The position numbers and the translations under genes were made by a program. The notes below the pieces were generated by a model. It saw only the letters and a program-made list of their open reading frames with translations. It ran no database searches and had not been told where the DNA came from. Shown here piece by piece: positions 683 to 16,491 of a stretch of DNA of 64,000 nt (its first letter is position 1; each line of letters opens with the position of its first letter). Location of the stretch: the NCBI GenBank assembly GCA_963674745.2, contig CAXXDV010000001.1:640001-704000 (forward strand), given 5' to 3'. This stretch comes from Desulfosudaceae bacterium. Its GTDB lineage: Bacteria; Desulfobacterota; Desulfobacteria; Desulfobacterales; Desulfosudaceae.

Positions 683-759
<77 letters not shown>

Positions 760-778
760 ATAAAATCAATTTAATCTG

Positions 779-1400
779 CTATTCAATCTCGGCCTTTATT
801 GCCGTGATATTTGAAATCGGGCAAACAGAAATTTTCTCTTCAGCAGGATAAGAAGCTGTTCCAGGATAAACGATCCACAGGTGCTCAAGATGAAGATCGT
901 TTATCGCGATACGCATAGACTTGGTTATTTCAGGGGCTTCTTTTAACTTGAACTCAATACCGTACGTTTTCCCTGTGCATAAAAAAGAGATCAAGTTCCG
1001 CGTTATAATGAGTGGCCAAGAAAAATGCCTGTGTCGGGTTCATTGTCTTTAAAACTTCTTCTAAGGCGAATTCCTCCAAGGATGCACCTACGGACGGATG
1101 TCCCCAGAACGTATGGTAGTCCGGAATATTCAACAGAAAATGGAGAATCCCCGTGGCCCTGAAGTAAACCTCGGGAGATTTTACCTGGCGTTTGCCGATA
1201 TTCCCATGCCACGATTGAAGTTGACGGAGCAAGAATGTACTGGACAGGATATAGAGGTAAGACCGAATGGTTTTGTCCGAGATACCCATGGATCAGGCTT
1301 ATCCGAAGTTCAACTGGAACGCGGTTGACAACGCTGATGATGGTTTACGATTAAAAAACGGGCTTGAGGGGATGACGCCCACTTCTTTAAAGATTTTTTT
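779..1400 (-). pseudogene. Degraded AAA-family ATP-binding protein with DUF4143-like C-terminus
   Basis: Two out-of-frame pieces (954-1289 GKRQVKSPEVYFRATGILH...ELDL; 779-994 GIEFK...LHLEHLWIVYPG) with upstream stops; left limit of homology approximate. Confidence 0.7.
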
Positions 1401-1515
1401 GATGTGTTATTTAGTAAACTGGCGTACTTGTACGATCGATAATAGCTTGACTTGTATCAATTTTTATGTTTAAAAAATCTTTAAATCCATCAAAAACAAC
1501 GAGACCGCCATAATA

Positions 1516-1601
1516 TTCATGCCAAAGCCAACCGCCGGGTGACCGGTTGACGGAAAGCAACGGGCCTTTTGTAATATAAAAGGCAGCCGGGCCGTCATGA
1601 A
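1516..1601 (+). ncRNA. c-di-GMP-I (GEMM-I) family riboswitch aptamer, variant
   Basis: P1 TTCATG/CATGAA; P2 CCGG-GTGA-CCGG GNRA hairpin; GACGGAAAGC junction; P3 ending GCAGCCGGG; lies in the leader of a surface-protein gene. Confidence 0.8.
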
Positions 1602-1614
1602 ACGATGATTTGAG

Positions 1615-1657
1615 GCCGGACCGCCTTTGGTAAAGAATGGTTCGGTTTTTTATTTTA
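1615..1657 (+). terminator. Probable intrinsic terminator (riboswitch expression platform)
   Basis: GCCGGACCG...TGGTTCGGT hairpin (with G-U pairs) followed by a T tract, between aptamer and start codon. Confidence 0.55.
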
Positions 1658-1688
1658 ATCTATACGGGGGGAGAAAAGGGGGGGGATC

Positions 1689-4600
1689 ATGAAAATCAAA
1701 CAAACCTGCCTGCTGACGTTGTTCCTGGGGCTGGTACTGTCAATAGCGACATATTCAATGGCGGATGTGGATTTTACCGCCAGCAAAATGTATGACGCCG
1801 CCGGGGACAATCCAAATCCAGTTGCCACTGGTGACCTTAACGGCGACAACCACCCTGACCTGGTAACAGCTAATCGGTCATCCAACAACGTATCCGTACT
1901 GATCAACAACGGCGACGGCACTTTTGCCGCGGCCGTAAATTACAGTACCGGGAACTGGCCATATTCAGTTGCCATCGGGGACTTGGACGGCGACTCCCAC
2001 CCTGACCTGGTAACAGCTAATTCTTATTCCAACGACGTATCCGTGCTGATGGGCAACGGTGACGGTACTTTTGCCACGGATGTCATATACAGCGCCGGAG
2101 ACGGGCCACATTCAGTTGCCATCGGGGACTTGGACGGCGACTCCCATCCTGACCTGGTAACAACGAATAATGATGCCGACGACGTATCTGTGCTGATCAA
2201 TAACGGCGACGGCACTTTTGCCATGCGCGTAAAATACAGCGCCGGGAACGGGCCACGTTCAGTTGCCATCGGAGACCTGGACGGCGACTCCCACCCTGAT
2301 CTGACAGTTGGTAATATTTTGGACGACAACATATCCGTACTGATCAACAACGGCGACGGCACTTTTGCCGCGGCCGTCAACTACAGCGCCGGAGACGGGC
2401 CACGTTCAGTTGCCATCGGGGACCTGGACGGCGACTCCCATCCTGACCTGGTAACAGCTAACCAGTCATCCGACAACGTATCCGTGCTGACCAATAATGG
2501 AGACGGCACTTTTACCGCCCCAGTCAACTTCGCTGCAGATAACTCCCCCTATTCAATCGTCGCTGACGATTTGAATGGTGATAATTATCTGGATCTGGCT
2601 GTGGCTAATTATTACTCTGAAAGTTTGACAGTGCTGTTGGGCCACGGCAACGGCACCTTTGCCGCCGCTGTTAATTACGCTGCCGGAGAGGGAGCATGTT
2701 CAGTTGCCGTTACCGATCTCGACGGAGATACCCACCCAGATCTGGTTGCAGTCAATGGTGTAGCTGACAATATTTCTGTTTTGGCAAATAACGGCGATGG
2801 GACTTTTGACTGCGCTGTTAAATACGATGCGGGTGACGGGCCCTTTTCAATTGCCATTACCGATCTGGATAGTGATGCCAACCTGGATTTGGCGGTGGTC
2901 AATAATTATTCTGACGATGTCTCTGTGCTATTGGGCAACGGCAACGGGACTTTTACCGCATATACCAGCTACAGCGTGGGTGATTCACCATGGACAGTAG
3001 CCAGTGCCGACCTGAACGGTGATAATTGTCCAGACTTGGCTACGGCTAACGGTGTTTCTGACAATGTATCGGTGCTGTTGGGCAACGGTGATGGGACCTT
3101 TGGCGTCGCTGTTAATTTTGCCGCCGGTGATCGACCAATGTCAATTGCGATTGACGACCTTGACGGTGATACTTTCCCTGATTTGGTGGTGGCTAACAAT
3201 AACTCTGACAACTTGTCGGTACTGCTGGGCAACGGCGATGGGACTTTTGACGCCGCTGTTAACTATTCTATTTGGGGATCACCCAATTCAATTGCTATTG
3301 CCGATCTGAACGGTGATAATTGTCCGGACCTCCTGGCAGGGGATGTCGACTATGACATCGTCTCGGTACTGTTGGGCAACGGCGACGGCACCTTTGCCAC
3401 CCATACTGATTACAGTGTGGGTGATTCACCAAAGTCAATAGCCCTTGCCGACCTGAACGGTGATACCTATCCGGACTTGGCTGTGGCCAACATTTCTTCT
3501 GACAATGTGTCGGTGCTGTTAGGCAATGGCGATGGGAGCTTTGTCGCCGCTATTAATTATGCCGCCGGAGATGGACCAAAAGCGATTGCCATCGCGGATC
3601 TGAACAGCGACACTCACCTGGACTTGGCAGTAGCCAATAATTATTCTGACAACATCTCGGTGCTGTTGGGCAACGGTGATGGCACCTTTGCCGCTGCCGT
3701 CAATCTTATTGCCGGTAACATGTTGGAATGTATTGCCATTGCTGACCTTAATGGAGACTCTGCGCCGGATCTTGTAACCGCTAATCAGAAAGCCGACAGC
3801 GTATCCGTGCTGATTAACCGTTCAACACTATCCTGCGACACCCCACCCGCTGCCCCCATCCCGACCTCACCCTCGGGAACCATTGATCAGACCACGCCGA
3901 TCTATGTCTGGGAGAGCGATCCCTGCGCCGATGCTTACCAACTTATCATCCGGGACGAGGCCCAACAGGATATCTTTTCCCAATGGTATGATGCAGCTGT
4001 GGTGGATAACGGTGACGGAACCTGTTCTATAAATCCCGGCCTGGAACTTGCCCCGGGTAGTTATTATTGGCTGGTGCAGGCGCAAAATCAGTATGGAACA
4101 GGTCCCTTGAGTACGGAAATGGCCTTTACGGTCGAAGAAGCCGATAGCGACGGTGATGGCACGCCGGATTCCAGTGACGGCTGTCCCTACGATCCGAACA
4201 AGATTGATCCGGGTGCTTGCGGCTGCGGTATAGCGGACACGGACACCGACAGTGACGGCACACCGGACTGCAACGATGGCTGCCCGAATGATCCGGCCAA
4301 GGTTGATCCGGGTGCCTGCGGATGTGGGATTCCGGATACGGACACGGACAGTGACGGTACACCTGACTGTAACGACTTGTGCCCAAATGACCCGAACAAG
4401 GTTGATCCGGGTACATGCGGATGCGGCATAGCAGACACCGATACCGACAGCGATGGTACCCCGGACTGTATTGATCAGTGTCCAAATGATCCGAATAAAA
4501 CCAATCCCGGTACGTGCGGATGCGGTGTGCCGGATACAGACTCCGACGTTGACGGTGTTCCGGACTGTAACGATCAGTGTCCCAACGATCCAAACAAGAC

Positions 4601-6212
4601 GGTTCCGGGAACCTGCGGATGCGGGGTTGCGGACACGGATACCGATAGTGACGGTACGCTGGACTGCAACGATGGCTGTCCCAACGATCCGGCCAAGATC
4701 GATCCCGGAGTCTGCGGCTGCGGCGTAGCAGATACGGATACGGACAGTGACGGTACGCTGGACTGTAACGACGGTTGTCCGAATGATCCGGCCAAGATCG
4801 ATCCGGGTGCCTGCGGATGCGGAGTGCCTGACACTGACACGGACGGTGACGGCACGCCCGACTGCAATGACCTGTCGCCTTTTGGTGTTGACTTTGGTGA
4901 TGCCCCGGATCCGACCTACCCGACACTGCTTGCATCAGACGGCGCCCGCCATACGATCCTCCCGGGATATTTTCTGGGTTCAGGCATAGACTACGAATCT
5001 GACGGTCAGCCTGACGTCGATGCCATGGGCGATGATAACAATGGAATTACGGACGAAGACGGGGTGGTTTTCAACACCCTTATTATTGCGGGTCAAACCG
5101 TGAGCTTGACAGTAACCGCTTCGGACACCGGGAACCTGGATGCCTGGATCGATTTGAATGGGGATGGTGACTGGGCTGATGCGGAAGATCAGATTTTTAC
5201 CAACCAGGCATTAACAGCCGGCGAAAACGATTTGGACATTGATCTTCCGGTCAGCGCTGTGGCAGGTATGACCTTTGCGCGATTCCGGTTCAGTGCAGCC
5301 GGTGGCTTATCATATGACGGCCTTGCCGCTGATGGAGAAATAGAAGATTACCAGGTTGAGATTCTGGGGGATGCAGATGGCGATGGTGAACCGGACATCA
5401 CCGATGGTTGCCCGAACGACGCGAACAAGGTTGATCCCGGTACGTGCGGCTGCGGTGTGTTGGATACCGACTCCGATGTTGACGGTGTTCCGGACTGTAT
5501 TGATCAGTGCCCCAACGATCCCAACAAGACGGTCCCAGGCACCTGCGGATGCGGCGTTGCTGACACGGACACCGACAGTGACGGTACGCCGGACTGTATC
5601 GATCAGTGCCCGAATGATCCCGATAAGACCGTTCCCGGTACATGCGGATGCGGTGTAACGGATGCTGATTCAGATAACGACGGTGTTGCGGATTGTAATG
5701 ACAATTGCCCCGGCACACCCTCCGGAGAAAGTGTTGATTCCAGTGGATGCGATATTGACGCTCCGACGCCCGACCCGATGGTTTTCTCATCCAACCCCTC
5801 GGCAGGTGGAACGGGTTCGATCAGCATGACCGCGGCAACAGCCGCTGACGGGAATGGTGTCCAATATTATTTTGAGGAGACAACAGGAAACAGCGGTGGG
5901 ACAGACAGCGGGTGGCAGGACAGTGCCAGTTATACAGACACCGGGTTAAGCGCCAGCACGCAATACGCGTATCGGGTCAAGGCCCGCGACAAATCCGCAA
6001 ACAATAACGAAACCGGCTGGTCTTCGGTACAGACCGCCACAACCGACGATCCGCCCAAGTCGGGCTGTGGCGCGGCGCCAATGGGACGCAACGGTATTGA
6101 CCCTGTTTCCGCCAGAAAATCCATGGGCAAGGCAGCGCTTCCGTTAGCGCCCTCGATCCTGGCACTGGGCATTTGGTCTCTGATTAACCGCAAAAAAAGT
6201 CGCGAGGCCTAA
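1689..6212 (+). CDS. Large secreted surface/adhesin-like protein: signal peptide, 14 FG-GAP/VCBS repeats, Ig/FN3-like domain, thrombospondin type 3-like Cys/Asp repeats, GEVED domain, FN3-like domain, C-terminal Cys + TM + basic tail
   Basis: 14 x ~49-aa (G/A/T/D)DL(D/N)(G/S)DxxxDL repeats; 33-aa DxDxDGxPDCxDxCPNDPxKxxPGxCGCG repeats; AWIDLNGDGDW...TFARFRF...GEIEDY; tail KSGCG...AALPLAPSILALGIWSLINRKKSREA. Confidence 0.9.
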   Translation: MKIKQTCLLTLFLGLVLSIATYSMADVDFTASKMYDAAGDNPNPVATGDLNGDNHPDLVTANRSSNNVSVLINNGDGTFAAAVNYSTGNWPYSVAIGDLDGDSHPDLVTANSYSNDVSVLMGNGDGTFATDVIYSAGDGPHSVAIGDLDGDSHPDLVTTNNDADDVSVLINNGDGTFAMRVKYSAGNGPRSVAIGDLDGDSHPDLTVGNILDDNISVLINNGDGTFAAAVNYSAGDGPRSVAIGDLDGDSHPDLVTANQSSDNVSVLTNNGDGTFTAPVNFAADNSPYSIVADDLNGDNYLDLAVANYYSESLTVLLGHGNGTFAAAVNYAAGEGACSVAVTDLDGDTHPDLVAVNGVADNISVLANNGDGTFDCAVKYDAGDGPFSIAITDLDSDANLDLAVVNNYSDDVSVLLGNGNGTFTAYTSYSVGDSPWTVASADLNGDNCPDLATANGVSDNVSVLLGNGDGTFGVAVNFAAGDRPMSIAIDDLDGDTFPDLVVANNNSDNLSVLLGNGDGTFDAAVNYSIWGSPNSIAIADLNGDNCPDLLAGDVDYDIVSVLLGNGDGTFATHTDYSVGDSPKSIALADLNGDTYPDLAVANISSDNVSVLLGNGDGSFVAAINYAAGDGPKAIAIADLNSDTHLDLAVANNYSDNISVLLGNGDGTFAAAVNLIAGNMLECIAIADLNGDSAPDLVTANQKADSVSVLINRSTLSCDTPPAAPIPTSPSGTIDQTTPIYVWESDPCADAYQLIIRDEAQQDIFSQWYDAAVVDNGDGTCSINPGLELAPGSYYWLVQAQNQYGTGPLSTEMAFTVEEADSDGDGTPDSSDGCPYDPNKIDPGACGCGIADTDTDSDGTPDCNDGCPNDPAKVDPGACGCGIPDTDTDSDGTPDCNDLCPNDPNKVDPGTCGCGIADTDTDSDGTPDCIDQCPNDPNKTNPGTCGCGVPDTDSDVDGVPDCNDQCPNDPNKTVPGTCGCGVADTDTDSDGTLDCNDGCPNDPAKIDPGVCGCGVADTDTDSDGTLDCNDGCPNDPAKIDPGACGCGVPDTDTDGDGTPDCNDLSPFGVDFGDAPDPTYPTLLASDGARHTILPGYFLGSGIDYESDGQPDVDAMGDDNNGITDEDGVVFNTLIIAGQTVSLTVTASDTGNLDAWIDLNGDGDWADAEDQIFTNQALTAGENDLDIDLPVSAVAGMTFARFRFSAAGGLSYDGLAADGEIEDYQVEILGDADGDGEPDITDGCPNDANKVDPGTCGCGVLDTDSDVDGVPDCIDQCPNDPNKTVPGTCGCGVADTDTDSDGTPDCIDQCPNDPDKTVPGTCGCGVTDADSDNDGVADCNDNCPGTPSGESVDSSGCDIDAPTPDPMVFSSNPSAGGTGSISMTAATAADGNGVQYYFEETTGNSGGTDSGWQDSASYTDTGLSASTQYAYRVKARDKSANNNETGWSSVQTATTDDPPKSGCGAAPMGRNGIDPVSARKSMGKAALPLAPSILALGIWSLINRKKSREA

Positions 6213-6224
6213 TCTTCACGAGAC

Positions 6225-6257
6225 AACAAGGGCGGTCAGGCAATGACCGCCCTTGTT
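6225..6257. terminator. Bidirectional terminator-like hairpin between convergent genes
   Basis: Perfect 14-bp stem AACAAGGGCGGTCA-ggcaa-TGACCGCCCTTGTT. Confidence 0.85.
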
Positions 6258-8214
6258 ATTTATAGGGGAAAAAGCGGCAGGCGGGATCGCCAAGCAGGTT
6301 GTACAGGAAAAGATCATTCCGCAGCATGCCCGGCGTGCCCAGTGACGCCTTTTCATTCTCAGGCACAGCATTTAAAAGAGACCTCGCCAGCGGGTCATTG
6401 CCGGCAATCTCGTTGAATGATTGATCCCCGGTATCATAGAGGGCCTGCTGAATGCCAAGGAACGCCTGGCCGATCGTGTCGGTCGTTTTTTGCAGATGCA
6501 TGATTATTCCCTTTACAAACAAATAGTTTGTCAGGGGATGGGTTGTGCCTGTTGCCGATACGACCCCGACAGGACCGTTTGGTTGGGCCAAAAACGCTTC
6601 CCCTAGAGACGGTCCGCTGCTTTTGGGCAGGCAATACCGTCCTGAGTCACACCCCAGCATAAAAAGAACACCCGGGGGGGAATTCCCTGCCGGAGAATTC
6701 AACGACATTTTCGAAACATCTTCTACGCTGAGAAATATCTCTTCACCATCGTAAGTTCCGGCTGTCACGCTCCGGTATGACCCGTGAGAGACGATGAGCG
6801 ACAGAAAGGGGCGGTTGCTGTTTAAGCGGGCAAGAAATGTAAAGGGCTGCGCTTTGAGTTCTCCTGATGAGACGGCCTGAGAATCCGCGCCGATAACAAC
6901 AGGAACAATCCAGTCCGGCAGGCGTTCCAGCAAACGGGGCGCCATCCGGCTCATCTGGGCCGTGTACCCCTGGGCGCCAAACCACACCAGCACCTTCTTT
7001 TGTGCAGGACCGGCATACTGTTTTGAATAGCTGATGATTTTTTTGATCTGTGCGTCAAGTTCAGCGGTAGACTGAATAGCCAGCCGCCCTACCGGCACAT
7101 CCGGCAAACCGTCATTGTCCATATCACCGTATTGAGCGTCCGACGTATATTTTCCGGAGGCAAACGACGGCATATGCCATGGGGCCTGCATGTCATTGCC
7201 ATGCCCGCAATCACCAACAATCAGGATATTTCCGATCGGTTCTTGGAACATCCTTTGCCGGCTCTCTATCCAGCCTTTTACGTCTTCGCGGTCCGGGGTG
7301 GTTTCCCAGGCCCTGACAACGACCCGATATCCTTCTTTTTCTCTAAAACCCGCCCATTCGTTTAAGGCCTCGGAAAAAACAGACCGGGTCACAACAAGAT
7401 AGGGGATTTGGTTAACGGTTTTCTCAGAAACCGCTTTAAACATCATATTTCTTATGCCGGTTCCCGCCAACAACGAAAGAAGCAGCAGACAGACGGCCGC
7501 GACAGCCCCTCTTTTCTTCCATTTCAGGATCAAAAGAACGCACAGGGATAAGATAAAAATCAACACACAAACGACCTGAAACACGCGTAGCCCCGGAATT
7601 AATAAAAGGCCGGAATCCGCACCTCTGAAAAACTCGCTGATAAACCGATGAGCGGCAAGAAACAGGCAGTACAGCGGAAATAAACAGACCCGCTTTTCAG
7701 GCTTCCCCCACAACCATTGAAGGATAACAAGGGAGAACGCTTCACCGATCATGCTGTAAATCTGGGTCGGATGCACCATGCAATTCAGACGATCTGAAAA
7801 AACAGCCCAGGGGACATCCGAAGGCGTTCCATAACAGCAGCCATTCACCAGGCATCCGATACGGGCGATAATATGGGCCAGCGCATAAGCCGGCGCGACA
7901 CTTCCCAGATTGCTCCAAAACGGCTTTTTAGCCACCCGAAGAACGATCCACATGCCGAGAGGTCCCAGCAGCGGGCCTCCCAGCCAGGTGCCTGTTTCCT
8001 GCCAGAAAGCGATTGCCAGCCAAAAGTCATCCACGAACAGTCGGGGATAGAAGATCAGCACATAAAGGATCCGGGTGCCCAGAAGACCGGCGTAGATCCC
8101 CGCAGTGAGGGCGATAATAGCCAGGGGGAAAGAGCAGCCGTTTTTGAACATGTTTCTGGTGGCCAGCACACCACCGGCAAGGAACCCTGTAAAGCCCCAG
8201 AACCAGTAATTCAT
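6256..8214 (-). CDS. Fusion of an Lgt (prolipoprotein diacylglyceryl transferase)-like membrane domain and a C25 (gingipain-family) cysteine peptidase domain
   Basis: Lgt-like motifs ARIGCLVNGCCYG, HPTQIY, RFISEFFR; C25-like motifs ILIVGD, DGLPDVPVGRL, SHGS (His), LGCDSG (Cys), YNLLGDPA; ATG at 8214 lies 2 nt after the upstream stop. Confidence 0.85.
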   Translation of the reverse strand: MNYWFWGFTGFLAGGVLATRNMFKNGCSFPLAIIALTAGIYAGLLGTRILYVLIFYPRLFVDDFWLAIAFWQETGTWLGGPLLGPLGMWIVLRVAKKPFWSNLGSVAPAYALAHIIARIGCLVNGCCYGTPSDVPWAVFSDRLNCMVHPTQIYSMIGEAFSLVILQWLWGKPEKRVCLFPLYCLFLAAHRFISEFFRGADSGLLLIPGLRVFQVVCVLIFILSLCVLLILKWKKRGAVAAVCLLLLSLLAGTGIRNMMFKAVSEKTVNQIPYLVVTRSVFSEALNEWAGFREKEGYRVVVRAWETTPDREDVKGWIESRQRMFQEPIGNILIVGDCGHGNDMQAPWHMPSFASGKYTSDAQYGDMDNDGLPDVPVGRLAIQSTAELDAQIKKIISYSKQYAGPAQKKVLVWFGAQGYTAQMSRMAPRLLERLPDWIVPVVIGADSQAVSSGELKAQPFTFLARLNSNRPFLSLIVSHGSYRSVTAGTYDGEEIFLSVEDVSKMSLNSPAGNSPPGVLFMLGCDSGRYCLPKSSGPSLGEAFLAQPNGPVGVVSATGTTHPLTNYLFVKGIIMHLQKTTDTIGQAFLGIQQALYDTGDQSFNEIAGNDPLARSLLNAVPENEKASLGTPGMLRNDLFLYNLLGDPACRFFPYK

Positions 8215-8216
8215 TA

Positions 8217-9095
8217 TTAAATTGATGAAATATTCAACCATTCCACAACGATATTAATACTCACGTGAATAATCAAGGCCCAACCGATGCCGGATGTCCT
8301 CTGCGTCACTGCGCCAAAAATCAGCCCGAGTGCCAGGACACATCCAAGATAACCGAAACCGGACAGAACAACAGGCCCAAGATGCATATGAAACACGGTG
8401 TAAAGCAACGCCTGAAAAATGATTCCCGGGATCAGGCCATACCGCTCCACACAAACGGGTTGAAGTATTCCCCGGTAGCAAATCTCTTCGGTGCCACCGG
8501 TCAGGGAGGCTTTCATGATCGCGATCAACACGACCCCCCAGAATGGTCCCAGCGGCTGAATCTGAATCCTTGTCACAATACCGATCGCCATGAAAACGGC
8601 TGCCGCGGAAGTAACGACCAGAACCACAGACAAGGGCGTTGTGACAGAAAAGCGCCCCCACGCCCCCCAACGAATGGGATTGCCCTGCCCATTGACGCGG
8701 TTCATAATAAGCACCGGAACCAGGACGTTGGCCGCAAATATGAAATGAAAATATAATAACAGCAGATATCCGTATAAATTACCGGGACGGGCAAGGGGCC
8801 ACGCGACTAGGCCATAATACCGAAAACAATTAAACACCCAGAATCCGGTGGCAAGAGCTGTAATTAACCTGAGTAGCCGACGATCTGCATAAACAGGTCT
8901 TAACACCGGGACAAATGCCGTAATCGCCATGCCAGTCACAATAAACAGGGCCACGGCAATACGCCAGCGGTCTGCCCCGGCTGCTGTGAGCAAATGAACC
9001 ACAAGTAAAAAAACAGCTAAAAGTGCAACCGGCTCAAATATTAAATATACTTTATTGTTTTTGTGAAAGGCGTGATCAGGGATATGCGTTTTCAT
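8217..9095 (-). CDS. CPBP (Abi/CAAX type II) family intramembrane glutamic protease
   Basis: Polytopic membrane protein with EEICYRG (EExxxR), FHMH and HVSIN (HxxxN) motifs. Confidence 0.85.
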   Translation of the reverse strand: MKTHIPDHAFHKNNKVYLIFEPVALLAVFLLVVHLLTAAGADRWRIAVALFIVTGMAITAFVPVLRPVYADRRLLRLITALATGFWVFNCFRYYGLVAWPLARPGNLYGYLLLLYFHFIFAANVLVPVLIMNRVNGQGNPIRWGAWGRFSVTTPLSVVLVVTSAAAVFMAIGIVTRIQIQPLGPFWGVVLIAIMKASLTGGTEEICYRGILQPVCVERYGLIPGIIFQALLYTVFHMHLGPVVLSGFGYLGCVLALGLIFGAVTQRTSGIGWALIIHVSINIVVEWLNISSI

Positions 9096-9235
9096 GGACT
9101 GATATTATACGATATTATTCCCCATGACAAAAGCACACACAACATTCAGGTATCCGCCAAAATCCACGATTGATTTTTCATGTGTTTTCCTAAAGGACAC
9201 AGCAGGTCAAAAAATCGTCCCCTTTAAATACTGAC

Positions 9236-9333
9236 GTTCTTGCAATACGTTGCATTGGTTGCACATAGGTTGCAGCGAGAGGTTGTTTCAGGGCAACTTT
9301 AACAGATTCGGTTTCAATAAAATCAATATGTTA
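9236..9333 (+). repeat. att arm-like region: four TTGCA repeats, GGGCAAC, IHF-consensus site
   Basis: TTGCA at 9240, 9250, 9259, 9270; AATCAATATGTTA at 9321-9333 fits WATCAANNNNTTR; near copy at 11036-11100, partial copy at 16736-16783. Confidence 0.7.
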
Positions 9334-9347
9334 TAGGTTAAAACAAA

Positions 9348-9393
9348 ACTTCGAATCCGTAGGCCGGGGGTTCGAACCCCTCCGGGCGCGCCA
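9348..9393 (+). repeat. Direct repeat of tRNA-Arg 3' half (att core, copy 2)
   Basis: 46 bp matching 714-759 with one mismatch, starting at the anticodon loop. Confidence 0.95.
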
Positions 9394-9404
9394 ATAAATT
9401 TATT

Positions 9405-10322
9405 TCAGAAAGTCCATGGACCTGACACAGTCCATTTTGAAGGCGGCGACTTTCGTGCAATCAAAGCCGAGGTTATCGGGCTGATAAATTCTTTCACTTG
9501 CATGACAATGATTTCGAACTCAGCAGGAACATGATCATGTTTGAGCTTTTTCCTGAAAGCATTCCATTGGACTTGTTTTGCTATGATGAACTCATGTGAA
9601 AAGGCAACTATATTTATGCTGTCTGGAAGTTCTGTCCCACGTTGCTCAAGCGTCAATCTGATCGCTTCTGACAGAATCTTACCATCAAAATCAAAATTGC
9701 GCGAAAGAAGCCAGATATCATAGAAATCCTTCATCCGGCTGTTCAACTCTCGACGTTTCAACATGGCTTCAAATTTTTCCGCGATCGAACTTTCACGGCT
9801 GTAACACAATAATTGAGGGGCCGGGAACTCCAGTATCGTCGGTATTTCTGATCTTTCAGGTTCGGGATAGATAATATCGCCGAATCCTATATCAATCTGT
9901 ATATTAAGCCTCATTGTATCCAGTTTTGTCGGAAACGATATTCTGACGCCCTGATATTCCGCATCCTCAGTAATATGCTCGGCCATTATGTTTTCAGGAG
10001 AGAAAGAGAGTCCGTCAGGATCAACAGCAACGGTTAGTATATCGGTTATATTGGAAATAAGTGACGACACGTCATTGTCTGTTTTACCAAGCAGGTCAAT
10101 GTCCATCGTTGATCGGATTTCAGGCGCTTGCCAGATCCGAAGCATCAGCGCCCCCTTCAGGATAAACCGGTTGGCATGCCGAGATTGTGCCAGGCGATAC
10201 AGAAACCGCTCCATGGCATAGTAATGAACCAGTTCTTGAAAAGGACGGCCATCAGTTCTGGCTTTATTGAGCAGCCGCTGTCTTACGGAGGCTGAGACAT
10301 TTTTCACCTGCTTTTTTATCAA
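9405..10322 (-). CDS. abiEii: AbiEii/AbiGii-family nucleotidyltransferase toxin (type IV TA)
   Basis: ERFLYRL, FILKGAL, RSTMDIDL, AEKFEAM, SRMKDFYD motifs. Confidence 0.9.
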   Translation of the reverse strand: MIKKQVKNVSASVRQRLLNKARTDGRPFQELVHYYAMERFLYRLAQSRHANRFILKGALMLRIWQAPEIRSTMDIDLLGKTDNDVSSLISNITDILTVAVDPDGLSFSPENIMAEHITEDAEYQGVRISFPTKLDTMRLNIQIDIGFGDIIYPEPERSEIPTILEFPAPQLLCYSRESSIAEKFEAMLKRRELNSRMKDFYDIWLLSRNFDFDGKILSEAIRLTLEQRGTELPDSINIVAFSHEFIIAKQVQWNAFRKKLKHDHVPAEFEIIVMQVKEFISPITSALIARKSPPSKWTVSGPWTF

Positions 10323-10912
10323 AGTGTTGCCTCCAGATAAGGCGTCATAATCTTTTTTACCCGACAGACCTCAGCGTACCTCAGCAGCTTTTCGAGATTG
10401 AATGGTTGCCTGGTTCGATACAGCTTAAGCGCTTCAAGAACAACCTCCATTCCAACTTTGTTCCGGAACTTAAAACAATCGGCCAGGGTCTTCTCCGGAG
10501 TATAGATCCTTACGTTTGCACCATCTATGGTGTGTTTTTCGATGCCGGAGGTGTAAGCTTTATCAGAGAATCGATGGGCCTGAACAGGAGGGTAGTCGAG
10601 AGAAGGGGCTCTTGAGTTTTTTGGCACCGCCACGGAAACAACATGTGGAATCTGGGTCGTGATATTATGGTAATGCAGGGCTGAGATAAGGCAGATTACG
10701 GTATTAGGGAACCGAAGGCTTACTGTAACAAGATCCGGGTTGGATAGCGGGGGCAGTTCCACAAGGCGATAAACACCTCTGGTCACTTGCTCTATTAGCC
10801 CCCTGTCTCTTAGCGAATAAAGCATATAACGCGTAATACCATGTGAAATCGCCTCACTCATTCGAAGTTGCCCGCCATGCTTCCGGAAAATTGTTAGTGG
10901 AGATTCTTTCAT
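10319..10912 (-). CDS. abiEi: AbiEi-family antitoxin/transcriptional regulator
   Basis: N-terminal wHTH (RGVYRL), ICLISAL.YH..TTQIP, EKTLADCFKFRN; 4-nt overlap with toxin gene. Confidence 0.9.
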   Translation of the reverse strand: MKESPLTIFRKHGGQLRMSEAISHGITRYMLYSLRDRGLIEQVTRGVYRLVELPPLSNPDLVTVSLRFPNTVICLISALHYHNITTQIPHVVSVAVPKNSRAPSLDYPPVQAHRFSDKAYTSGIEKHTIDGANVRIYTPEKTLADCFKFRNKVGMEVVLEALKLYRTRQPFNLEKLLRYAEVCRVKKIMTPYLEATL

Positions 10913-10920
10913 CTTTTTAA

Positions 10921-10968
10921 TCAGACATATTGTATATATTTGTAAATAATTAATGACATTATGTCTGA
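10921..10968. promoter_or_regulatory. Inverted repeat in abiE promoter, probable AbiEi operator
   Basis: TCAGACATATTGT ... ACATTATGTCTGA (13 bp, 1 mismatch) immediately upstream of the abiEi start. Confidence 0.6.
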
Positions 10969-11035
10969 ATCAGGATAAAAAAGTCAAGATGAATTTGAAA
11001 ATCCCTCAAAATTCGGACGAGACTTAAATTCTTAG

Positions 11036-11100
11036 GTTCTTGCAATACCTTGCATTGGTTGCGCATAGGTTGCAGCGAGAGGTCGCTCCAGGGCAACCTT
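11036..11100 (+). repeat. Second copy of att arm-like region, lacking an intact tRNA core
   Basis: 65-bp near copy of 9236-9300, offset exactly 1800 bp. Confidence 0.85.
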
Positions 11101-11164
11101 GACAATTATTTGCTAAACAAAATCATTTTTCTGACCTTCTATTAAGTCAAAAACAAGCCCGGGT

Positions 11165-11180
11165 TCGACAATAATGTCGA
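11165..11180. promoter_or_regulatory. Palindrome, candidate enhancer (UAS) for the sigma54 activator
   Basis: TCGACA-ATAA-TGTCGA about 100 bp upstream of a -24/-12-like promoter; another TGTCGA half-site at 11195-11200. Confidence 0.5.
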
Positions 11181-11276
11181 GCGAACACCTGGTTTGTCGA
11201 GCCCCACCTGCTTTCTAATCGGGCACATATTCTTTTACCTACTGGTTTCATAGCATATTTTGCCAGCCGCAGGGGT

Positions 11277-11292
11277 TGGCATGGTTATTGAT
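11277..11292 (+). promoter_or_regulatory. Candidate sigma54 -24/-12 promoter
   Basis: TGGCAT-GGTTA-TTGAT versus consensus TGGCAC-N5-TTGC (GA rather than GC at -12); gene cluster encodes its own sigma54 activator. Confidence 0.5.
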
Positions 11293-11357
11293 TTGATTGT
11301 TGTCAGATTGATTGGAAATGAATTTGAACAATAATCAAAACAAAAAGGAGCAAAACA

Positions 11358-11993
11358 ATGAAAAACATCAAATCAAAGATCATTGTCACAGTAATCGCCT
11401 TAAGTCTTTTCGTCATGGTACCGGCGACCTTTGCCGGGAACGGGAGAGGACAGGGCCAGGGCGCCGGAGACGGGAGCGGTCCTATTCACAGCATTCTTGA
11501 CGGCGTCCCTGTTGTGGTTGACGGTACGGTGGTCGCTTTGGGGACCAAGGGAAATGGTATCGAAATCGACGACGGTATCGACATTGTCACCGTATACGGC
11601 CTGGGGCCTGTTGCCTTCTGGGATGCAGCGGGAATGGTAAAGCCGGAAATCGGTGAAGACATCGTGGTCAACGGATTCGAAATTACCCTGTCGGATGGAT
11701 CAACCAAAATTATCGTGGCAAGCATCACCATTGGCGGGGATGAAATTATCCTTCGCGACCCGGAAACAGGCGCCCCCCTGTGGCGCGGCATTAACCGGTT
11801 TAACAATCAAAATCGAAACAGGACCGGGGACTGCGTATCTTTGTTGGATACCCCTGCTGATACACGGCTTCTCGCAAAAGGAGGAAACGGTCGTGGCGGG
11901 CATGGTCCGAAAGACGGCACCGGCAATGGGGGCAACGGCCCAAAAGACGGTTCCGGTTATGGGAAAAAAGCCGGCACCTGTAACATTGGCTGA
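11358..11993 (+). CDS. Exported protein with Gly-rich termini (GPKDGTG/GPKDGSG repeats), function unknown
   Basis: AAGGAG RBS, signal peptide ending ATFA, beta-rich core, Gly-rich ends. Confidence 0.75.
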   Translation: MKNIKSKIIVTVIALSLFVMVPATFAGNGRGQGQGAGDGSGPIHSILDGVPVVVDGTVVALGTKGNGIEIDDGIDIVTVYGLGPVAFWDAAGMVKPEIGEDIVVNGFEITLSDGSTKIIVASITIGGDEIILRDPETGAPLWRGINRFNNQNRNRTGDCVSLLDTPADTRLLAKGGNGRGGHGPKDGTGNGGNGPKDGSGYGKKAGTCNIG

Positions 11994-12214
11994 TATTGTT
12001 GAAAAAATATCCGGTTGAGCGGAAGGCCTAAAAATTGCGGTCATCACCGGAAAAGGACGCGGCCTCCGCCAACCCGGATATTTGCAAGAGACTTCATGTT
12101 TTTTATAAATATGCAAAACATTGAATTAAGAAAGAATATCATGATAAAAAGAGCAGGGACTAACATTTTTTCTCCAATCGTGTTCTTTATGAAGGATACT
12201 CGGGCATAGCGGAT

Positions 12215-13195
12215 ATGGTTTTTCAAAAAAATCGCACAACATCAAAGTTCACTCGCTATACCCTTATTCGGTTCTTTCCAATTCTAATTGTTATTCTTTT
12301 CCCAAAAATACAAACGCAGGCTTCGGCAATAGACACGGCCGTTGCGTTTGCGGTCGGGTATGATGACAACGTGACGCTTTCTCCGGTTTCTAAAAACTCG
12401 GCGTTTGCCCGCTATCAGGCATATCTGGCCCGGAATTTTTTTTCTGATGGAAGCCTGGCCGACTTCAAGGGTTATATCGGCGCCCAATATCAGGATTATT
12501 TCAGTGCCGGGGATAATTATTATATGTATGCCGGTGCTTCACTTGGTTACCCTGTGGCGGAAGGGCGATTAGTGCCTGAATTGTATTATGAAGGAACAAT
12601 ATTTCGTGACGATGAACTGCCTGAAGACAGTATGAACGAACATTGTCTGGGTGGTCGCCTGGACTGGTTCCCCCAGGCAAGAATCATTATCGGACTTCGG
12701 CAAAGCTGGTGCTGGCAGGATTATCGGGACAAAGAAGGCCCCGAAGTCTCTGGCAAACAAAAAGGCATGAACGGTCAGACCGGCCATGATGAATTAGAAT
12801 CACGTGATGACCGCCTGAGTTCAACCGGCTTAATGCTTCACTACAGTTTTACGCCTCAAACAGATGCGGAAATCTTATTCACACATGACCGATCATCTTC
12901 TTCCATTGAAAGAGAATCTTATTCAGAAAACGGCCTGGCATTATCGCTGTTATGGACGCCTATGGATCATTGGGAATTTTCCGGTAGGATGGGATGGGGA
13001 AAAACGGATTATGACCGTTCACCCCAGGATGTAAAAAGACAGGACAAGACCTGGCGGTTCGGTGTTGAGATAGGCCGTATAATTAATAAATACAAAATAT
13101 TTGCCCGTTATGAAAAAACAGACAATGACTCCTCGATTGATGAGGAAACTTATAAGAATATGGTGACGCAATGCGGCGTTTCATGTTTTTTTTAA
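12215..13195 (+). CDS. Putative outer-membrane beta-barrel protein
   Basis: Signal-like N-terminus, GYDDNV motif, alternating aromatic beta strands, C-terminal Phe. Confidence 0.65.
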   Translation: MVFQKNRTTSKFTRYTLIRFFPILIVILFPKIQTQASAIDTAVAFAVGYDDNVTLSPVSKNSAFARYQAYLARNFFSDGSLADFKGYIGAQYQDYFSAGDNYYMYAGASLGYPVAEGRLVPELYYEGTIFRDDELPEDSMNEHCLGGRLDWFPQARIIIGLRQSWCWQDYRDKEGPEVSGKQKGMNGQTGHDELESRDDRLSSTGLMLHYSFTPQTDAEILFTHDRSSSSIERESYSENGLALSLLWTPMDHWEFSGRMGWGKTDYDRSPQDVKRQDKTWRFGVEIGRIINKYKIFARYEKTDNDSSIDEETYKNMVTQCGVSCFF

Positions 13196-13584
13196 TAATA
13201 CTGATTCATCTGGTTACCATCCCGGCGGCGGCGGCGGATGCCATCTTGGGCACCGTTGTTTCACTTGATCGTGAAAAAGGAGAAATGACCGTCCGTTTAA
13301 GTGACACCTTTAATTCGATTGATGAACCCGAAGTCAATACTGAACCAGAAATTGTAACGGTCAATTTTAACGCCGATCAATTGGAAAAAAGCATTAAAGT
13401 CGGCAGGCTGGTGCGGCTGTGGGGCAGTTTTGGGTCAGGCGCACAAAACGTCTTTCAAGCCACCGTAATTGAAAGAAGCGACAGACAAAACAGGTTTGAC
13501 CCGACCGGCGTGCGGGGACGGCTTGGGAAAAGAAGGGGAATGGGCAGCGGACATCATGGCGGAAAAGGACGTGGCGGCAATTGA
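13171..13584 (+). CDS. Small exported beta-rich (OB-fold-like) protein with Gly/basic tail
   Basis: Signal peptide (AAAA-D), GTVVSLD...VRLWG, overlaps both neighbours. Confidence 0.65.
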   Translation: MRRFMFFLIILIHLVTIPAAAADAILGTVVSLDREKGEMTVRLSDTFNSIDEPEVNTEPEIVTVNFNADQLEKSIKVGRLVRLWGSFGSGAQNVFQATVIERSDRQNRFDPTGVRGRLGKRRGMGSGHHGGKGRGGN

Positions 13585-15176
13585 AAAAGAGGCATGAAGG
13601 GACACCCATTATAAATCATTTTCAAATAAAATCTCCGTGGAAAGCCAACATCATTGTTATCGGGACATTGATTCTGATTGTTTTGGGATACTTCTTCTGG
13701 CAGCTCCAGTATACTGAAAAAACATTTCGCAATCATATTAACGATCATGCCCTGATGCTGGCCGGTATGATTCGTTTGAATGCCGACAATTCAGTATTAT
13801 CACAGGAAATCATCGAAGAGATCATGGTGACTTTTCTGGGGAATTCTGCACGTTTCGTCGATTACCTGGATTCCATAGAACCGTTTAACAGTGATGAGCT
13901 GACCGCATTTGCCGAAGAGTCCGGGCTGGCGGGCATCTGTATCGTCAGAAAAGACGGACGGATTGTGGAGGGCCCCCCCGGATGGTTTCTCCTGAAAAAC
14001 CGTTACCATACTGAGAATTTTGTCATTCATCATTTAAAAGACAACAATATCTACTATTTTTCTATCCCGGGCAATAACGATTCAACATGCATCCATGTCG
14101 GACTGGCCGGCAAAAGAATCGACGAATTAAAAAACCAGGTTGATCTGAACCATATGTTGAGCATCCTGTCAGGGCAGCCCGGCATCCGGTATGTTCACCT
14201 TGACCAGAAACGTTTGTCAGATAATAATCCAGGGCCCCTTTCCAATGTAAAAATGATTGAAAATAAAAATGGCCGGATTGCCGAAGTGCGTGTCCCTCTG
14301 GGAGACGATGTTCTGGTAGTTGGACTTGAAGCGATCAGTTTCTTTAAACGTGTCAATCAACTCCGTTATGAATTCATTGTTTTCAGCATCATTATTGCCG
14401 GTTTAGGCGCTTTTTTCACCTGGGTTCTTTACCGTTACCAGATGGCACATCTGGCCCAGGCACAAAAATTTGAGCGTCGACTGGCGGCCGAACAGGAGGA
14501 CGCCGCCCTGGGCCGGGCATCGGCCACCATCACCCATGAAATACGAAACCCTTTGAATGCCATCAGTATGGGGCTTCAACGCCTGGGTTTAGAAGCCGAT
14601 GAAATGAACGACGAGCATCGCGACCTGGTTTTAAACCTGCAAAAAGCCGTGCAGAGGACCGACAATATTATCAACGGACTTCGTCGTTACTGCACCCCCC
14701 TGGTTCCCCGGCTTGAAAATGTCAGGATCGATTCGATTATCGACCACATTCTGGCTTTATACCGGCAGGCCTGCACCGACAACTCAATCTCGATTAATTA
14801 CCACCCTGAATATCAGCAAACGATTGCTGCTGATTTTAATCTTCTGGAAGAGGTTTTCGAAAATTTAGTCAAAAACGCGATAGAAGCACAACCAGACGGC
14901 GGTGATATTGAGATCAGGCTTTACAAAAAAAGCCCGGATCTTGTTATTTCCATAGAAAACGGCGGATTTGATTTGTCTTCAGATGAGGCGGATAAAATTT
15001 ACAAACCGTATTTCACAACCAAAACCAGGGGGTCCGGTTTAGGGCTATCCATTTCCGCCCGAATTATCCGTGCCCATGGCGGGCGGATGGAACTACAGGT
15101 GCCGGATGCCGGGCGCCTGCGAATCAACATTTTTCTTCCGGTTGAAAGAGATGATCATGAAAATTCTCGTGGTTGA
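13581..15176 (+). CDS. Membrane sensor histidine kinase
   Basis: Two TM segments, H-box HEIRNPL, N-box NLVKNAIEA, FTTK, GSGLGL. Confidence 0.95.
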   Translation: MKKRHEGTPIINHFQIKSPWKANIIVIGTLILIVLGYFFWQLQYTEKTFRNHINDHALMLAGMIRLNADNSVLSQEIIEEIMVTFLGNSARFVDYLDSIEPFNSDELTAFAEESGLAGICIVRKDGRIVEGPPGWFLLKNRYHTENFVIHHLKDNNIYYFSIPGNNDSTCIHVGLAGKRIDELKNQVDLNHMLSILSGQPGIRYVHLDQKRLSDNNPGPLSNVKMIENKNGRIAEVRVPLGDDVLVVGLEAISFFKRVNQLRYEFIVFSIIIAGLGAFFTWVLYRYQMAHLAQAQKFERRLAAEQEDAALGRASATITHEIRNPLNAISMGLQRLGLEADEMNDEHRDLVLNLQKAVQRTDNIINGLRRYCTPLVPRLENVRIDSIIDHILALYRQACTDNSISINYHPEYQQTIAADFNLLEEVFENLVKNAIEAQPDGGDIEIRLYKKSPDLVISIENGGFDLSSDEADKIYKPYFTTKTRGSGLGLSISARIIRAHGGRMELQVPDAGRLRINIFLPVERDDHENSRG

Positions 15177-16491
15177 TGATGAAAAAATGCAGCGTGACTT
15201 AATGAAAGGGTTCCTGGAAAAGCAAGGCTATGATGTAAGCGTGGCCGCGGATGGTAATGAGGCGCTGACATTGTTTTCAAACTACCCGTTTCAACTGGTC
15301 CTTCTGGACAACCGGATGCCGGATTCGTCCGGTGCCGAAGTTCTGGAACGGATAAAGACCATCAACCCCCTGGTGCGCTGCATTATGATTACGGCTTACG
15401 GGTCGGTGGATACGGCTGTGGAAGTCATGAAACTGGGGGCTGACGATTTTCTTGAAAAACCGGTGGATCTTTCGGCCCTGCTGGAAAAAATCAGATTGAT
15501 TGAAAAATCCATCATAATAGAAGAAGAAGCCGCAAGTGTTTCAGAGGCCTTGGCGGCAAAAGAACTGCCGATCAGGATGATCGGTGAAAGCAAAAATATG
15601 AAAATCGTTTTTTCCCTGGTCAGGCGAATCGCGCCGACGGATTGGACGGTCTTAATTCAGGGAGAAACCGGAACCGGAAAAGACTTAATCGCCAGAATTC
15701 TCCACATGCTCAGCCCGAGGAACGAGAATCCGTTTATAGAAGTGAATTGTGCCGCCATCCCGGAAAACCTGTTCGAGTCAGAATTTTTCGGGCATGAAAA
15801 AGGCGCCTTTACCGGAGCGGTATCCAGCCGCAAAGGCAGCTTTGAACTGGCACAAAAGGGGAGCCTGTTTCTGGATGAAGTGGGAGAATTGCCCGTAAGT
15901 TTACAGGCTAAACTGCTGAGGGCTTTACAGGAGAAAAGGATCAACCGGGTGGGCAGTGCGCAAAGCATTCCCATTGATGTCCGTGTGTTTGCGGCCACAA
16001 ACAGAGACCTCAAAAAAATGGTTGAAGACGGCAAATTCAGGGAAGACCTGTTTTACCGTTTAAAAGTTCTGGATCTTGAAGTACCGCCGCTCCGCCACAG
16101 AAAGGAGGATATTACACCTTTAGCAGAATTTTTCATCGATCGATACAGCTCCAGCCCTGTTCGATTTGATCCGGATGCTTTGGCCACACTGATTAAATAT
16201 ACTTTTCCCGGTAATGTCCGGGAACTTGAACACATGATCCAGCGGATTTTAACGCTTTCAAGGGGGACTGTCATCCGGCCAGAAGATTTACCTGCAGAGG
16301 TCCGTTTTCACCACGCCAACGATCAGGGGACATTGACCGAACGGCTTGAGACGGTCGAGCGGGAAATGATTATTTCCGCTCTGGAAAAACATGACTGGGT
16401 GCAGACCCATGCGGCCGACGACCTGGGGATCAGTGAACGGGTGCTTCGTTACAAAATGAAAAAGTATCGTATCAAAAACGATGGGAAATAA
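15157..16491 (+). CDS. Sigma54-dependent response regulator (NtrC/ZraR family)
   Basis: Receiver ILVVDDE...LLDNRMP, GETGTGK, GAFTGA, FREDLFYRL, PGNVREL, C-terminal Fis-type HTH. Confidence 0.95.
   Translation: MKILVVDDEKMQRDLMKGFLEKQGYDVSVAADGNEALTLFSNYPFQLVLLDNRMPDSSGAEVLERIKTINPLVRCIMITAYGSVDTAVEVMKLGADDFLEKPVDLSALLEKIRLIEKSIIIEEEAASVSEALAAKELPIRMIGESKNMKIVFSLVRRIAPTDWTVLIQGETGTGKDLIARILHMLSPRNENPFIEVNCAAIPENLFESEFFGHEKGAFTGAVSSRKGSFELAQKGSLFLDEVGELPVSLQAKLLRALQEKRINRVGSAQSIPIDVRVFAATNRDLKKMVEDGKFREDLFYRLKVLDLEVPPLRHRKEDITPLAEFFIDRYSSSPVRFDPDALATLIKYTFPGNVRELEHMIQRILTLSRGTVIRPEDLPAEVRFHHANDQGTLTERLETVEREMIISALEKHDWVQTHAADDLGISERVLRYKMKKYRIKNDGK

Follow-up and report, generated by a model that had tools for sequence, protein, structure and literature searches.

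Background

In eukaryotes, CAAX processing starts with the transfer of a prenyl group to a cysteine near the C-terminus, after which Rce1, a member of the CPBP family, cuts distal to that cysteine; the glycosylphosphatidylinositol (GPI)-anchor transamidase, a caspase-like cysteine protease, removes a hydrophobic C-terminal signal. Here we describe a bacterial locus in which an Lgt-like membrane domain is fused to a gingipain-family (C25) peptidase domain, and in which the gene for this fusion protein lies beside genes for a CPBP/Rce1-like intramembrane protease and for a cargo protein with a cysteine-bearing C-terminal tail. The locus was found in 64,000 nucleotides (nt) from a Desulfosudaceae bacterium (assembly GCA_963674745.2, contig CAXXDV010000001.1, positions 640,001 to 704,000 of the forward strand). 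This whole stretch is called the window, and coordinates refer to it unless another locus is named.

The closest bacterial systems described are those of the CPBP 'myxosortases', which process cysteine-bearing C-terminal signals; according to the accessible parts of the two sources (PMC11980579; bioRxiv 10.1101/2023.06.07.544157), the CPBP-cut signals with an invariant cysteine are MYXO-, JDVT-, Synerg- and CGP-CTERM. For MYXO-CTERM, lipidation of the cysteine followed by cleavage distal to it has been proposed, with a lipid-adding enzyme that the accessible part of PMC11980579 gives as not identified and predicted to be 'Lgt-like'. In the portion of the bioRxiv preprint that was available, the terms Lgt, diacylglyceryl, C25 and gingipain are without mention. 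Among C25 peptidases, PG0026, the C-terminal domain (CTD) signal peptidase, is described in the available text of PMC4560394 as the proposed sortase-like enzyme of P. gingivalis, and in that of PMC4804311 it is called the PorU sortase. A description of an Lgt-C25 fusion or of a K-S-G-C tail was not found in the literature searched, with subscription journals and supplements lying outside the search.

We consider that the fusion protein is probably the signature enzyme of a small, horizontally mobile cassette with three parts, namely the cargo, the CPBP protease and the Lgt-like/C25 enzyme. This cassette would, in our estimate with somewhat better than even prospects, be dedicated to C-terminal sorting, the Lgt-like domain lipidating the tail cysteine and the proteases removing the membrane helix. 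The evidence comes from the domain architecture, the catalytic residues, the gene linkage, the tail with its invariant cysteine and the co-occurrence of tail and enzymes.

Results

Reading frame and domain architecture

The fusion protein is encoded by one unbroken open reading frame (ORF) on the minus strand, 6256..8241, running from an ATG at 8241 to a stop at 6256 (661 aa; Pfam and homologue alignment). A preliminary description of this DNA, made from the sequence alone, had placed the ORF at 6256..8214. It was right about the single uninterrupted frame; position 8214 is an internal methionine, the strand (minus) was not given, and strand, true start and partner genes were all missed. ATG 8241 is the likelier start because the longer protein begins MVEYFINL..., in line with the M-A-E-Y at which 33 aligned homologues begin. 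From this start the gene overlaps the stop of the upstream CPBP gene by 25 nt.

Pfam identifies an LGT domain (PF01790) at residues 12-237 (7531..8208, minus strand; E 2.7e-36, 125.5 bits against a gathering cut-off of 24.9) and a Peptidase_C25 domain (PF01364) at residues 281-656 (6274..7401, minus strand; E 7.1e-32, 111.5 bits against a cut-off of 23). The C25 match spans profile positions 1-373 of 374. Both assignments made in the preliminary description are thereby confirmed far over the gathering scores, and the motifs it quoted were all found (RIGCLVNGCCYG, HPTQIY, RFISEFFR, TGTWLGG, SHG and GCDSG). Beyond the last Lgt helix there is a basic K-W-K-K-R-G loop followed by one more hydrophobic, putatively transmembrane helix (residues 245-263; 7453..7509, minus strand).

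Family and distribution of the fusion

A search of 5.8 billion clustered proteins matched 57 proteins, the query included. Both Pfam domains are present in 50 other cluster representatives (P0005-P0054), which are 35-55% identical to the query (BLASTP). A locus search with a single-protein query returned no loci; an alignment-based query over one genome per species then returned 14 full-length fusion loci (L004-L017), in records of Desulfobacterales, Desulfatiglandales, Desulfoluna spongiiphila, SAR324, Gemmatimonadota, Pirellulales, Nitrospiraceae and Hydrogenedentota. The frame is intact in 13 of them. The remaining one (L010 6890-9219, from a SAR324 metagenome-assembled genome, MAG) has two overlapping frames with a break near residue 335, where a frameshift or an assembly error is possible. 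The other 65 loci retained in the scan are C25 relatives only, at 23-32% identity. A concern that the fusion might be an isolated assembly artefact is thus answered by its recurrence in 50 other cluster representatives and 14 full-length loci from several phyla.

The fusion is rare. It was found in none of 150 other genomes of the same order, where the 86 matching genomes cover only profile positions ~8-285 (the Lgt part), and in none of 400 other genomes of the same phylum at E <= 1e-80. A plasmid collection gave nine matching records, all in the Lgt part only and none covering >=80% of the query. A search of the ESM Atlas returned only generic C25 clusters (scores 0.75-0.76), and a search for CPBP-Lgt-C25 triple fusions or longer forms gave one unrelated weak match, by which the absence of such forms is weakly supported.

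Eight homologues listed with an NCBI or JGI name are called 'prolipoprotein diacylglyceryl transferase', either exactly, as a family protein or in the corresponding JGI wording; the label of a ninth combines peptidase C25-like with the transferase. In about one third of the fusion homologues, which are 760-790 aa long, the C25 domain is followed by an additional C-terminal module of ~110-130 residues (alignment A1, columns ~735-845), which is absent from the protein in the window. Other fusions, of Lgt domains of 400-491 aa with PDZ domains (PF17820, PF13180), were seen in P0058-P0060, another case of an Lgt coupled to a periplasmic protein-binding module.

The Lgt-like domain compared with stand-alone Lgts

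A profile search of the genome (5.5 Mb, 99.96% complete) finds a stand-alone Lgt of 258 aa at 227.9 bits on another contig, C3 (L001 1465-2241, minus strand), which settles whether a housekeeping lgt exists beside the fusion, a point that the preliminary description had raised. Stand-alone Lgts were also found in all five other fusion genomes examined, with 205-245 bits against 108-129 for the fused domains. Judged from these comparisons the fusion is a paralogue and not the genome's general lipoprotein transferase. A maximum-likelihood tree separates 33 fused Lgt domains from nine stand-alone Lgts by a branch with 100/99 support and a stem of 2.21 changes per column; the tree is unrooted and three of the stand-alone rows are partial envelopes. 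This branch and its long stem bear out the earlier idea of a specialised paralogue. The lgt equivalogs of NCBIfam all score far under cut-off, the best being NF000778 (73.5 against 334 bits), with TIGR00544 at 55.9 against 118.9.

Alignment to the E. coli enzyme shows that the Arg/Glu/Tyr core is retained in the Lgt-like domain. Residues Y12, R127, R199, E203 and R206 pair with Y26, R143, R239, E243 and R246 of E. coli Lgt (5azb profile alignment, E 3.5e-12), all of which are intolerant of mutation according to the accessible part of PMC4728403. The three arginines (R127, R199, R206) do not vary across 33 fusion sequences that are 36-57% identical in the alignment; Y12 and E203 are conserved in at least 90% of them.

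The domain is 34% identical to the genome's own Lgt over 208 aa, and it differs from stand-alone Lgt in several places. The GG doublet ahead of the E. coli His103 position is replaced in the fusion (FWQxTGTW), the head is the shortest seen (18 residues from GCCYG to HPTQ, against 26 in the own Lgt), and the N-terminal arm also differs from stand-alone Lgt. The contrast drawn earlier between TGTWLGG and the housekeeping motif therefore stands, the own Lgt reading KGGLVFYGG. The use of QIYS versus QLYE as a mark of the paralogue does not, since the own Lgt reads QLYS and also has RIGCFFAGCCYG. As the own Lgt shares both RIGCxxxGCCYG and Q-x-Y-S, these are lineage traits and not paralogue marks. 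We also considered the invariant cysteines C130, C135 and C136 as a sign of new chemistry, and rejected this because the own Lgt and four other stand-alone Lgts have the same Cys-rich signature type.

The stand-alone Lgts of the examined genomes (L001; L099-L106) show two signature types, RIGCxxxGCCYG and RxGNFxNxE. The housekeeping Lgt of this genome is of the Cys type, and three of the five other fusion genomes examined (G153, G156, G158) have two stand-alone copies. Additionally, the own genome has a third, very divergent Lgt-like paralogue of 348 aa (L003, G000:C1:1873534-1877232, ORF 1351-2397, plus strand; PF01790 28 bits, motif GRLACLSFGCCYG), directly downstream of a phosphatidylserine decarboxylase gene (274-1347).

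The C25 domain, its catalytic dyad and proposed topology

The C25 domain matches structures of gingipain R (4ief, RgpB, E 1.2e-12; 1cvr, E 1.8e-11) and of PorU (6za2, E 1.1e-7). In the profile alignment to 4ief and 1cvr, the SHGS histidine (His486, nt 6784-6786) and the GCDSG cysteine (Cys531, nt 6649-6651) align with the GHGS histidine and the ACVNG cysteine of gingipain R at chain positions 211 and 244, which we take to be the catalytic residues in 1cvr. The cysteine is present in all 33 fusion sequences and the histidine in 32, and the protein from the window keeps both residues of the dyad noted earlier. From these residues, and from those of the two partner domains, the cassette enzymes (Lgt-like, C25, CPBP) look active. 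The PorU-type equivalog NF033707 scores 16.8 bits against a cut-off of 420. The genome was also searched for type IX CTD tails, a search in which the control matched nothing.

Simple hydropathy handled the polar Lgt helices poorly, and the topology was taken from homology to E. coli Lgt, whose head and polar cavity are on the periplasmic side in the accessible text of PMC4728403. The C25 domain would lie outside the cytoplasmic membrane, on the same side as the Lgt site and the cargo Cys box. We place it there because of the basic loop and the extra helix, the periplasmic head of E. coli Lgt and the signal-peptide-like starts of C25 relatives; at least seven of 13 stand-alone relatives have a signal-peptide-like N-terminus directly before the shared L-V-V-T-R domain start.

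The genome encodes one more C25 domain (239 bits; L110, G000:C3:1926001-1941000, ORF 8003-14995, minus strand), which makes up the C-terminal region of a giant protein of surface type, a 2971-aa frame with SdrD_B and DUF11 repeats, and is unrelated to the cassette.

The CPBP partner

Directly upstream of the fusion gene lies the gene for the CPBP/Rce1-like intramembrane protease (8217..9095, minus strand, 292 aa). The protein keeps E203-E204-x3-R208, F235-H236, H277, E285 and N288, and 25 of 25 CPBP sequences agree at E203, E204, R208, F235, H236 and H277. A CPBP homologue, 30-42% identical, was found directly upstream of the fusion gene in all 14 loci, on the same strand and either overlapping or at most ~30 nt away. 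An all-against-all comparison of the 15 neighbourhoods showed that the fusion and CPBP genes are the only ones common to all of them. Five further CPBP homologues sit on contigs equal in nt size to contigs with fusion homologues, which suggests co-location there as well. The protease in the window scores under the cut-off of every named Mrt family in NCBIfam (MrtS 25.5/130, MrtJ 22.6/75, MrtC 20.6/195 and Mrt_core 23.1/100 bits).

The cargo and its C-terminal tail

The cargo gene (1689..6212, plus strand, 1507 aa) is convergent to the fusion gene. Its product has a signal-peptide-like start followed by 13 FG-GAP-like repeats, thrombospondin-3-like Cys/Asp repeats, a GEVED and a fibronectin type III (fn3)-like module, and ends ...DDPPKSGCGAAPMGRNG...KAALPLAPSILALGIWSLINRKKSREA. 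The last 61 aa (6027..6209, plus strand) form a sorting tail made up of a Cys box, a helix and a basic end. The Cys box reads K-S-G-C-G-A-A-P-M-G-R-N-G, with Cys1460 at nt 6066-6068; the helix reads A-A-L-P-L-A-P-S...W, with Pro1485 at nt 6141-6143, which gives a spacing of 25 residues from Cys to Pro, and is followed by N-R-K-K-S-R-E-A. Between the convergent stops of cargo and fusion there is a perfect 14-bp hairpin with a 5-nt loop (6225..6257, read from the sequence), which looks like a bidirectional terminator.

A tail profile was built from ten tails of fusion neighbours. In the own genome it matches one of 36,814 frames, the neighbouring cargo, with 84.5 bits and a runner-up at 12. Among 1.84 billion representatives it matches 48 proteins at E <= 1e-3. 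For 46 of these, the matched stretch falls within the final 70 residues and stops at most 20 residues short of the C-terminus; the remaining two are chance matches in multiple stretches and were discounted. In the consensus, K-S-G-C-G-A-A-P-M-Y-R-D-G is followed by a spacer, then by a membrane helix with A-L-L-P-L-L-P and finally by a cluster of Arg and Lys. The cysteine and the proline at the helix start are invariant in all 45 aligned tails, and the distance between them is 21-27 residues, most commonly 26. Other positions are frequent in the same tails (G at +1 in 43, P at +4 in 43, K at -3 in 38, M at +5 in 36, R at +7 in 29 and a helix W in 42).

The 45 proteins are otherwise diverse, with fn3 domains in 13, Big_9 in nine, cadherin-like domains in six and PKD in six, besides an S8 subtilase, an M28 peptidase, GH30 and CotH. 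One tail on otherwise unrelated cargo of extracellular type is the pattern expected of a sorting signal. With the CTERM models of NCBIfam, three of four tails gave no family and the fourth gave sub-threshold matches only, the best being PVV-CTERM (15.8 against 27 bits).

Co-occurrence of tail and enzymes

A tail-bearing ORF was found in the fetched flanks of nine of the 14 loci; L005 has two, and the one in L014 scores 23 bits only. In L012, from a record of the cultured strain Desulfoluna spongiiphila AA1, a 1837-aa cargo, the CPBP protease and the fusion are encoded in one operon on the same strand. For three of the five loci without a flanking tail, a tail was found elsewhere in the genome. 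Counting the own genome, the tail is present in 13 of 15 fusion genomes. Conversely, it is absent from 149 of 150 genomes of the same order that do not have the fusion, the single exception being a weak 24-bit match to the helix part only, with no Cys box.

Proposed mechanism and alternatives

As to topology, lipid transfer to the cysteine, the order of steps, the protease that makes each cut and the final location of the cargo, we infer the following course. The cargo would be exported through Sec by its N-terminal signal peptide. Its C-terminal helix would hold it in the cytoplasmic membrane, the Arg/Lys end lying on the cytoplasmic side. The Lgt-like domain, remodelled at the arm-2/TM3 junction and in the head, would then move diacylglyceryl from phospholipid to the cysteine of K-S-G-C-G-A-A-P. 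Next, the tethered periplasmic C25 domain and/or the CPBP protease would remove the spacer and the membrane helix, and the product would be a cargo whose lipid anchor sits at its new C-terminus or close to it. A soluble-domain enzyme such as C25 would be suited by the long conserved spacer, and the Pro-rich tail helix resembles other CPBP-processed signals. The preliminary suggestion of altered substrate recognition, with proteolysis coupled to lipid transfer, fits the CPBP partner and the Cys-tail cargo, and it too would stay a prediction from sequence.

Several observations weigh against this course of events. The Cys box fits a lipobox in part only, having small residues at -2 and -1 and a Lys at -3. 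Where E. coli Lgt has His103, the 12 fusions compared have Leu or Met (Leu in the protein from the window); His103 belongs to the HGGL motif, is the proposed lipobox-peptide site and is essential in E. coli Lgt. The own stand-alone Lgt has Tyr at this position, so that the histidine is not universal in stand-alone Lgts either. In MYXO-CTERM-type signals, as described in the accessible sources, the motif abuts the helix, whereas the cassette cysteine is 21-27 residues away from it and its access to an Lgt site at the membrane surface is not obvious. The cassette has two proteases where one might suffice. Two of the 15 fusion genomes, both MAGs, have no tail at E <= 1e-3. Finally, since the tail profile was derived from fusion neighbours, only the absence test is independent, and it covers one order.

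A transamidase-type reaction is an alternative that we regard as unlikely. The C25 domain would cut in the small-residue Cys box and, in the manner of PorU or a GPI transamidase, transfer the freshly made C-terminus to a nucleophile, here the head group of a phospholipid bound by the Lgt-like domain. That this domain is a lipid-presenting module rather than a thiol diacylglyceryl transferase, with the CPBP protease clearing the leftover helix, seems equally doubtful to us. The C25 family does include PorU, with a structure (6za2) matching at E 1.1e-7, and a spacer of 21-27 residues suits a soluble-domain enzyme, an argument made for LPXTG in the accessible part of bioRxiv 10.1101/2023.06.07.544157. 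Small residues (G-A-A) follow the tail cysteine, and the covalent joining of the two domains suggests coupled chemistry. However, the cysteine invariant in 45 of 45 tails is needed by a thiol-directed Lgt reaction and not by a transamidase, the catalytic Arg/Glu network of Lgt is fully retained, and the PorU equivalog score is 16.8 against 420 bits.

It is rather improbable that the cassette works by proteolysis only, the Lgt-like domain being an inactive scaffold which recruits the tail while C25 and/or CPBP free the cargo for release or for hand-over to secretion. The Leu or Met at the H103 position, the shortened head and altered N-terminal arm, and lgt equivalog scores far below cut-off (best 73.5 against 334 bits) would all agree with an inactive domain, and the Lys at -3 (38 of 45 tails) and Arg at +7 (29 of 45) could be cleavage sites of gingipain type. 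Yet at only 36-57% identity the three core arginines (R127, R199, R206) never vary and Y12 and E203 seldom do, conservation that is difficult to account for in a scaffold, and the invariant tail cysteine would be left without a role.

It is extremely improbable that the fusion is just the housekeeping Lgt, or that two genes were joined artificially in assembly or annotation: database names do call eight of the homologues plain diacylglyceryl transferase, but a separate stand-alone Lgt is present here (227.9 bits) and in five of five other fusion genomes, none of 150 genomes searched in the order and none of 400 in the phylum has the fusion, and the same unbroken architecture is seen in 50 other clusters and 13 of 14 loci.

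The islet and its surroundings

The cassette lies in an islet of ~8.6 kb beside tRNA genes. A tRNA-His gene (553-628) is followed by a tRNA-Arg (TCG) gene (683..759, plus strand), whose 3' part from 714 to 759, extended to 765, is the left, attL-like copy of a 52-nt direct repeat. The repeat thus consists of the last 46 nt of tRNA-Arg and 6 nt beyond. The right, attR-like copy is at 9348..9399 (plus strand, 52 nt, 1 mismatch). Besides the three cassette genes, the segment between the two copies holds a DUF4143 fragment (954..1289, minus strand, 111 aa, matching positions 41-147 of a 160-position profile); an integrase was not seen within the islet. With a GC content of 0.49-0.55, the three cassette genes do not stand out strongly from the genome (0.505).

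Just beyond the right repeat there is an AbiEii toxin/AbiEi antitoxin pair (9405-10912, minus strand). The tRNA locus recurs in a genome of the same family (G067), where there is no fusion and two partial tRNA-Arg repeats flank an AbiE module that is 87% identical to positions 9397-10993 of the window. This suggests tandem islets at a tRNA-Arg hot spot. Downstream of the islet follow a histidine kinase and a sigma-54-dependent response regulator (13581-16491, plus strand), and from 24 to 64 kb the window is ordinary chromosome, with PFOR, TRAP transporters, MlaA/MlaC and a DinB-type polymerase.

Discussion

Significance

The cassette suggests a new bacterial route by which proteins are lipid-anchored through their C-terminal end. 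What is new here is the tail, the long spacer, the CPBP protease outside the named Mrt families and the obligatory Lgt-like/C25 partner. The question addressed is which enzyme modifies the cysteine of CPBP-cut signals, for which Lgt is put forward as no more than a leading candidate in the accessible part of PMC11980579. With chances that we put at about even, the sequences could reveal the first identifiable enzyme that lipidates a C-terminal Cys signal, an Lgt paralogue re-aimed from N-terminal lipoboxes to the K-S-G-C-G-A-A-P box, which would act with C25 and a myxosortase-like CPBP protease to make 'C-terminal lipoproteins'.

If this is true, it gives direct genetic support for Lgt-family enzymes as the missing lipidation step of MYXO-CTERM-type sorting, and a new bacterial protein-lipid linkage is defined. 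It would extend Lgt chemistry past N-terminal lipoboxes, and it would explain a rare and widely scattered gene fusion that is labelled plain Lgt in databases. As an Lgt-family domain is genetically locked to a CPBP protease and a cargo across several phyla, the cassette brings the question down to three genes and a single substrate, which can be reconstituted in E. coli. Furthermore, it could yield a compact module of tag and enzyme for the C-terminal membrane anchoring of proteins.

Comparison with known systems

The CAAX and GPI systems are comparable by analogy only, and we suppose homology for the CPBP family alone. Unlike in CAAX processing, the transferase of the cassette is Lgt-like and not a prenyltransferase, the reaction would be periplasmic, and the tail has a membrane helix.

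Compared with PorU and the gingipains, the fusion has a C25 domain with an aligned His/Cys dyad, and it would likewise act on a C-terminal signal of surface proteins. In contrast to PorU, it has no equivalog-level match and is tethered to the cytoplasmic membrane through the Lgt-like domain. The cassette signal is a Cys box with a helix, versus a CTD that is a beta-sandwich, and the cassette hosts are not Bacteroidota.

With E. coli Lgt (5azb/5azc) the fusion shares the PF01790 fold and equivalents of the catalytic residues, and it has the 'RIGCxxxGCCYG' signature type of the stand-alone Lgt in its own genome. The fusion differs in being a paralogue in a mobile islet, with an extra helix and a C25 domain added. 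Its presumed acceptor is a cysteine near the C-terminus, versus an N-terminal lipobox.

The myxosortase systems are alike in having a CPBP/Rce1-like protease with catalytic Glu-Glu and His motifs, and a tripartite tail in which an invariant cysteine, a helix and a basic cluster are found on unrelated exported proteins. The invariant proline of the cassette tail recalls the helix proline described for Synerg-CTERM in the accessible sources. Like the MrtJ/JDVT pair, as far as the available descriptions go, the cassette is small and dedicated, and enzyme and signal co-occur. Different from the myxosortase systems are the CPBP protease, which falls outside the named Mrt families, and the tail, which falls outside the described CTERM models. 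Moreover, the cassette always encodes an Lgt-like/C25 enzyme, a partner for which the accessible parts of PMC11980579 and of the bioRxiv preprint have no counterpart by name.

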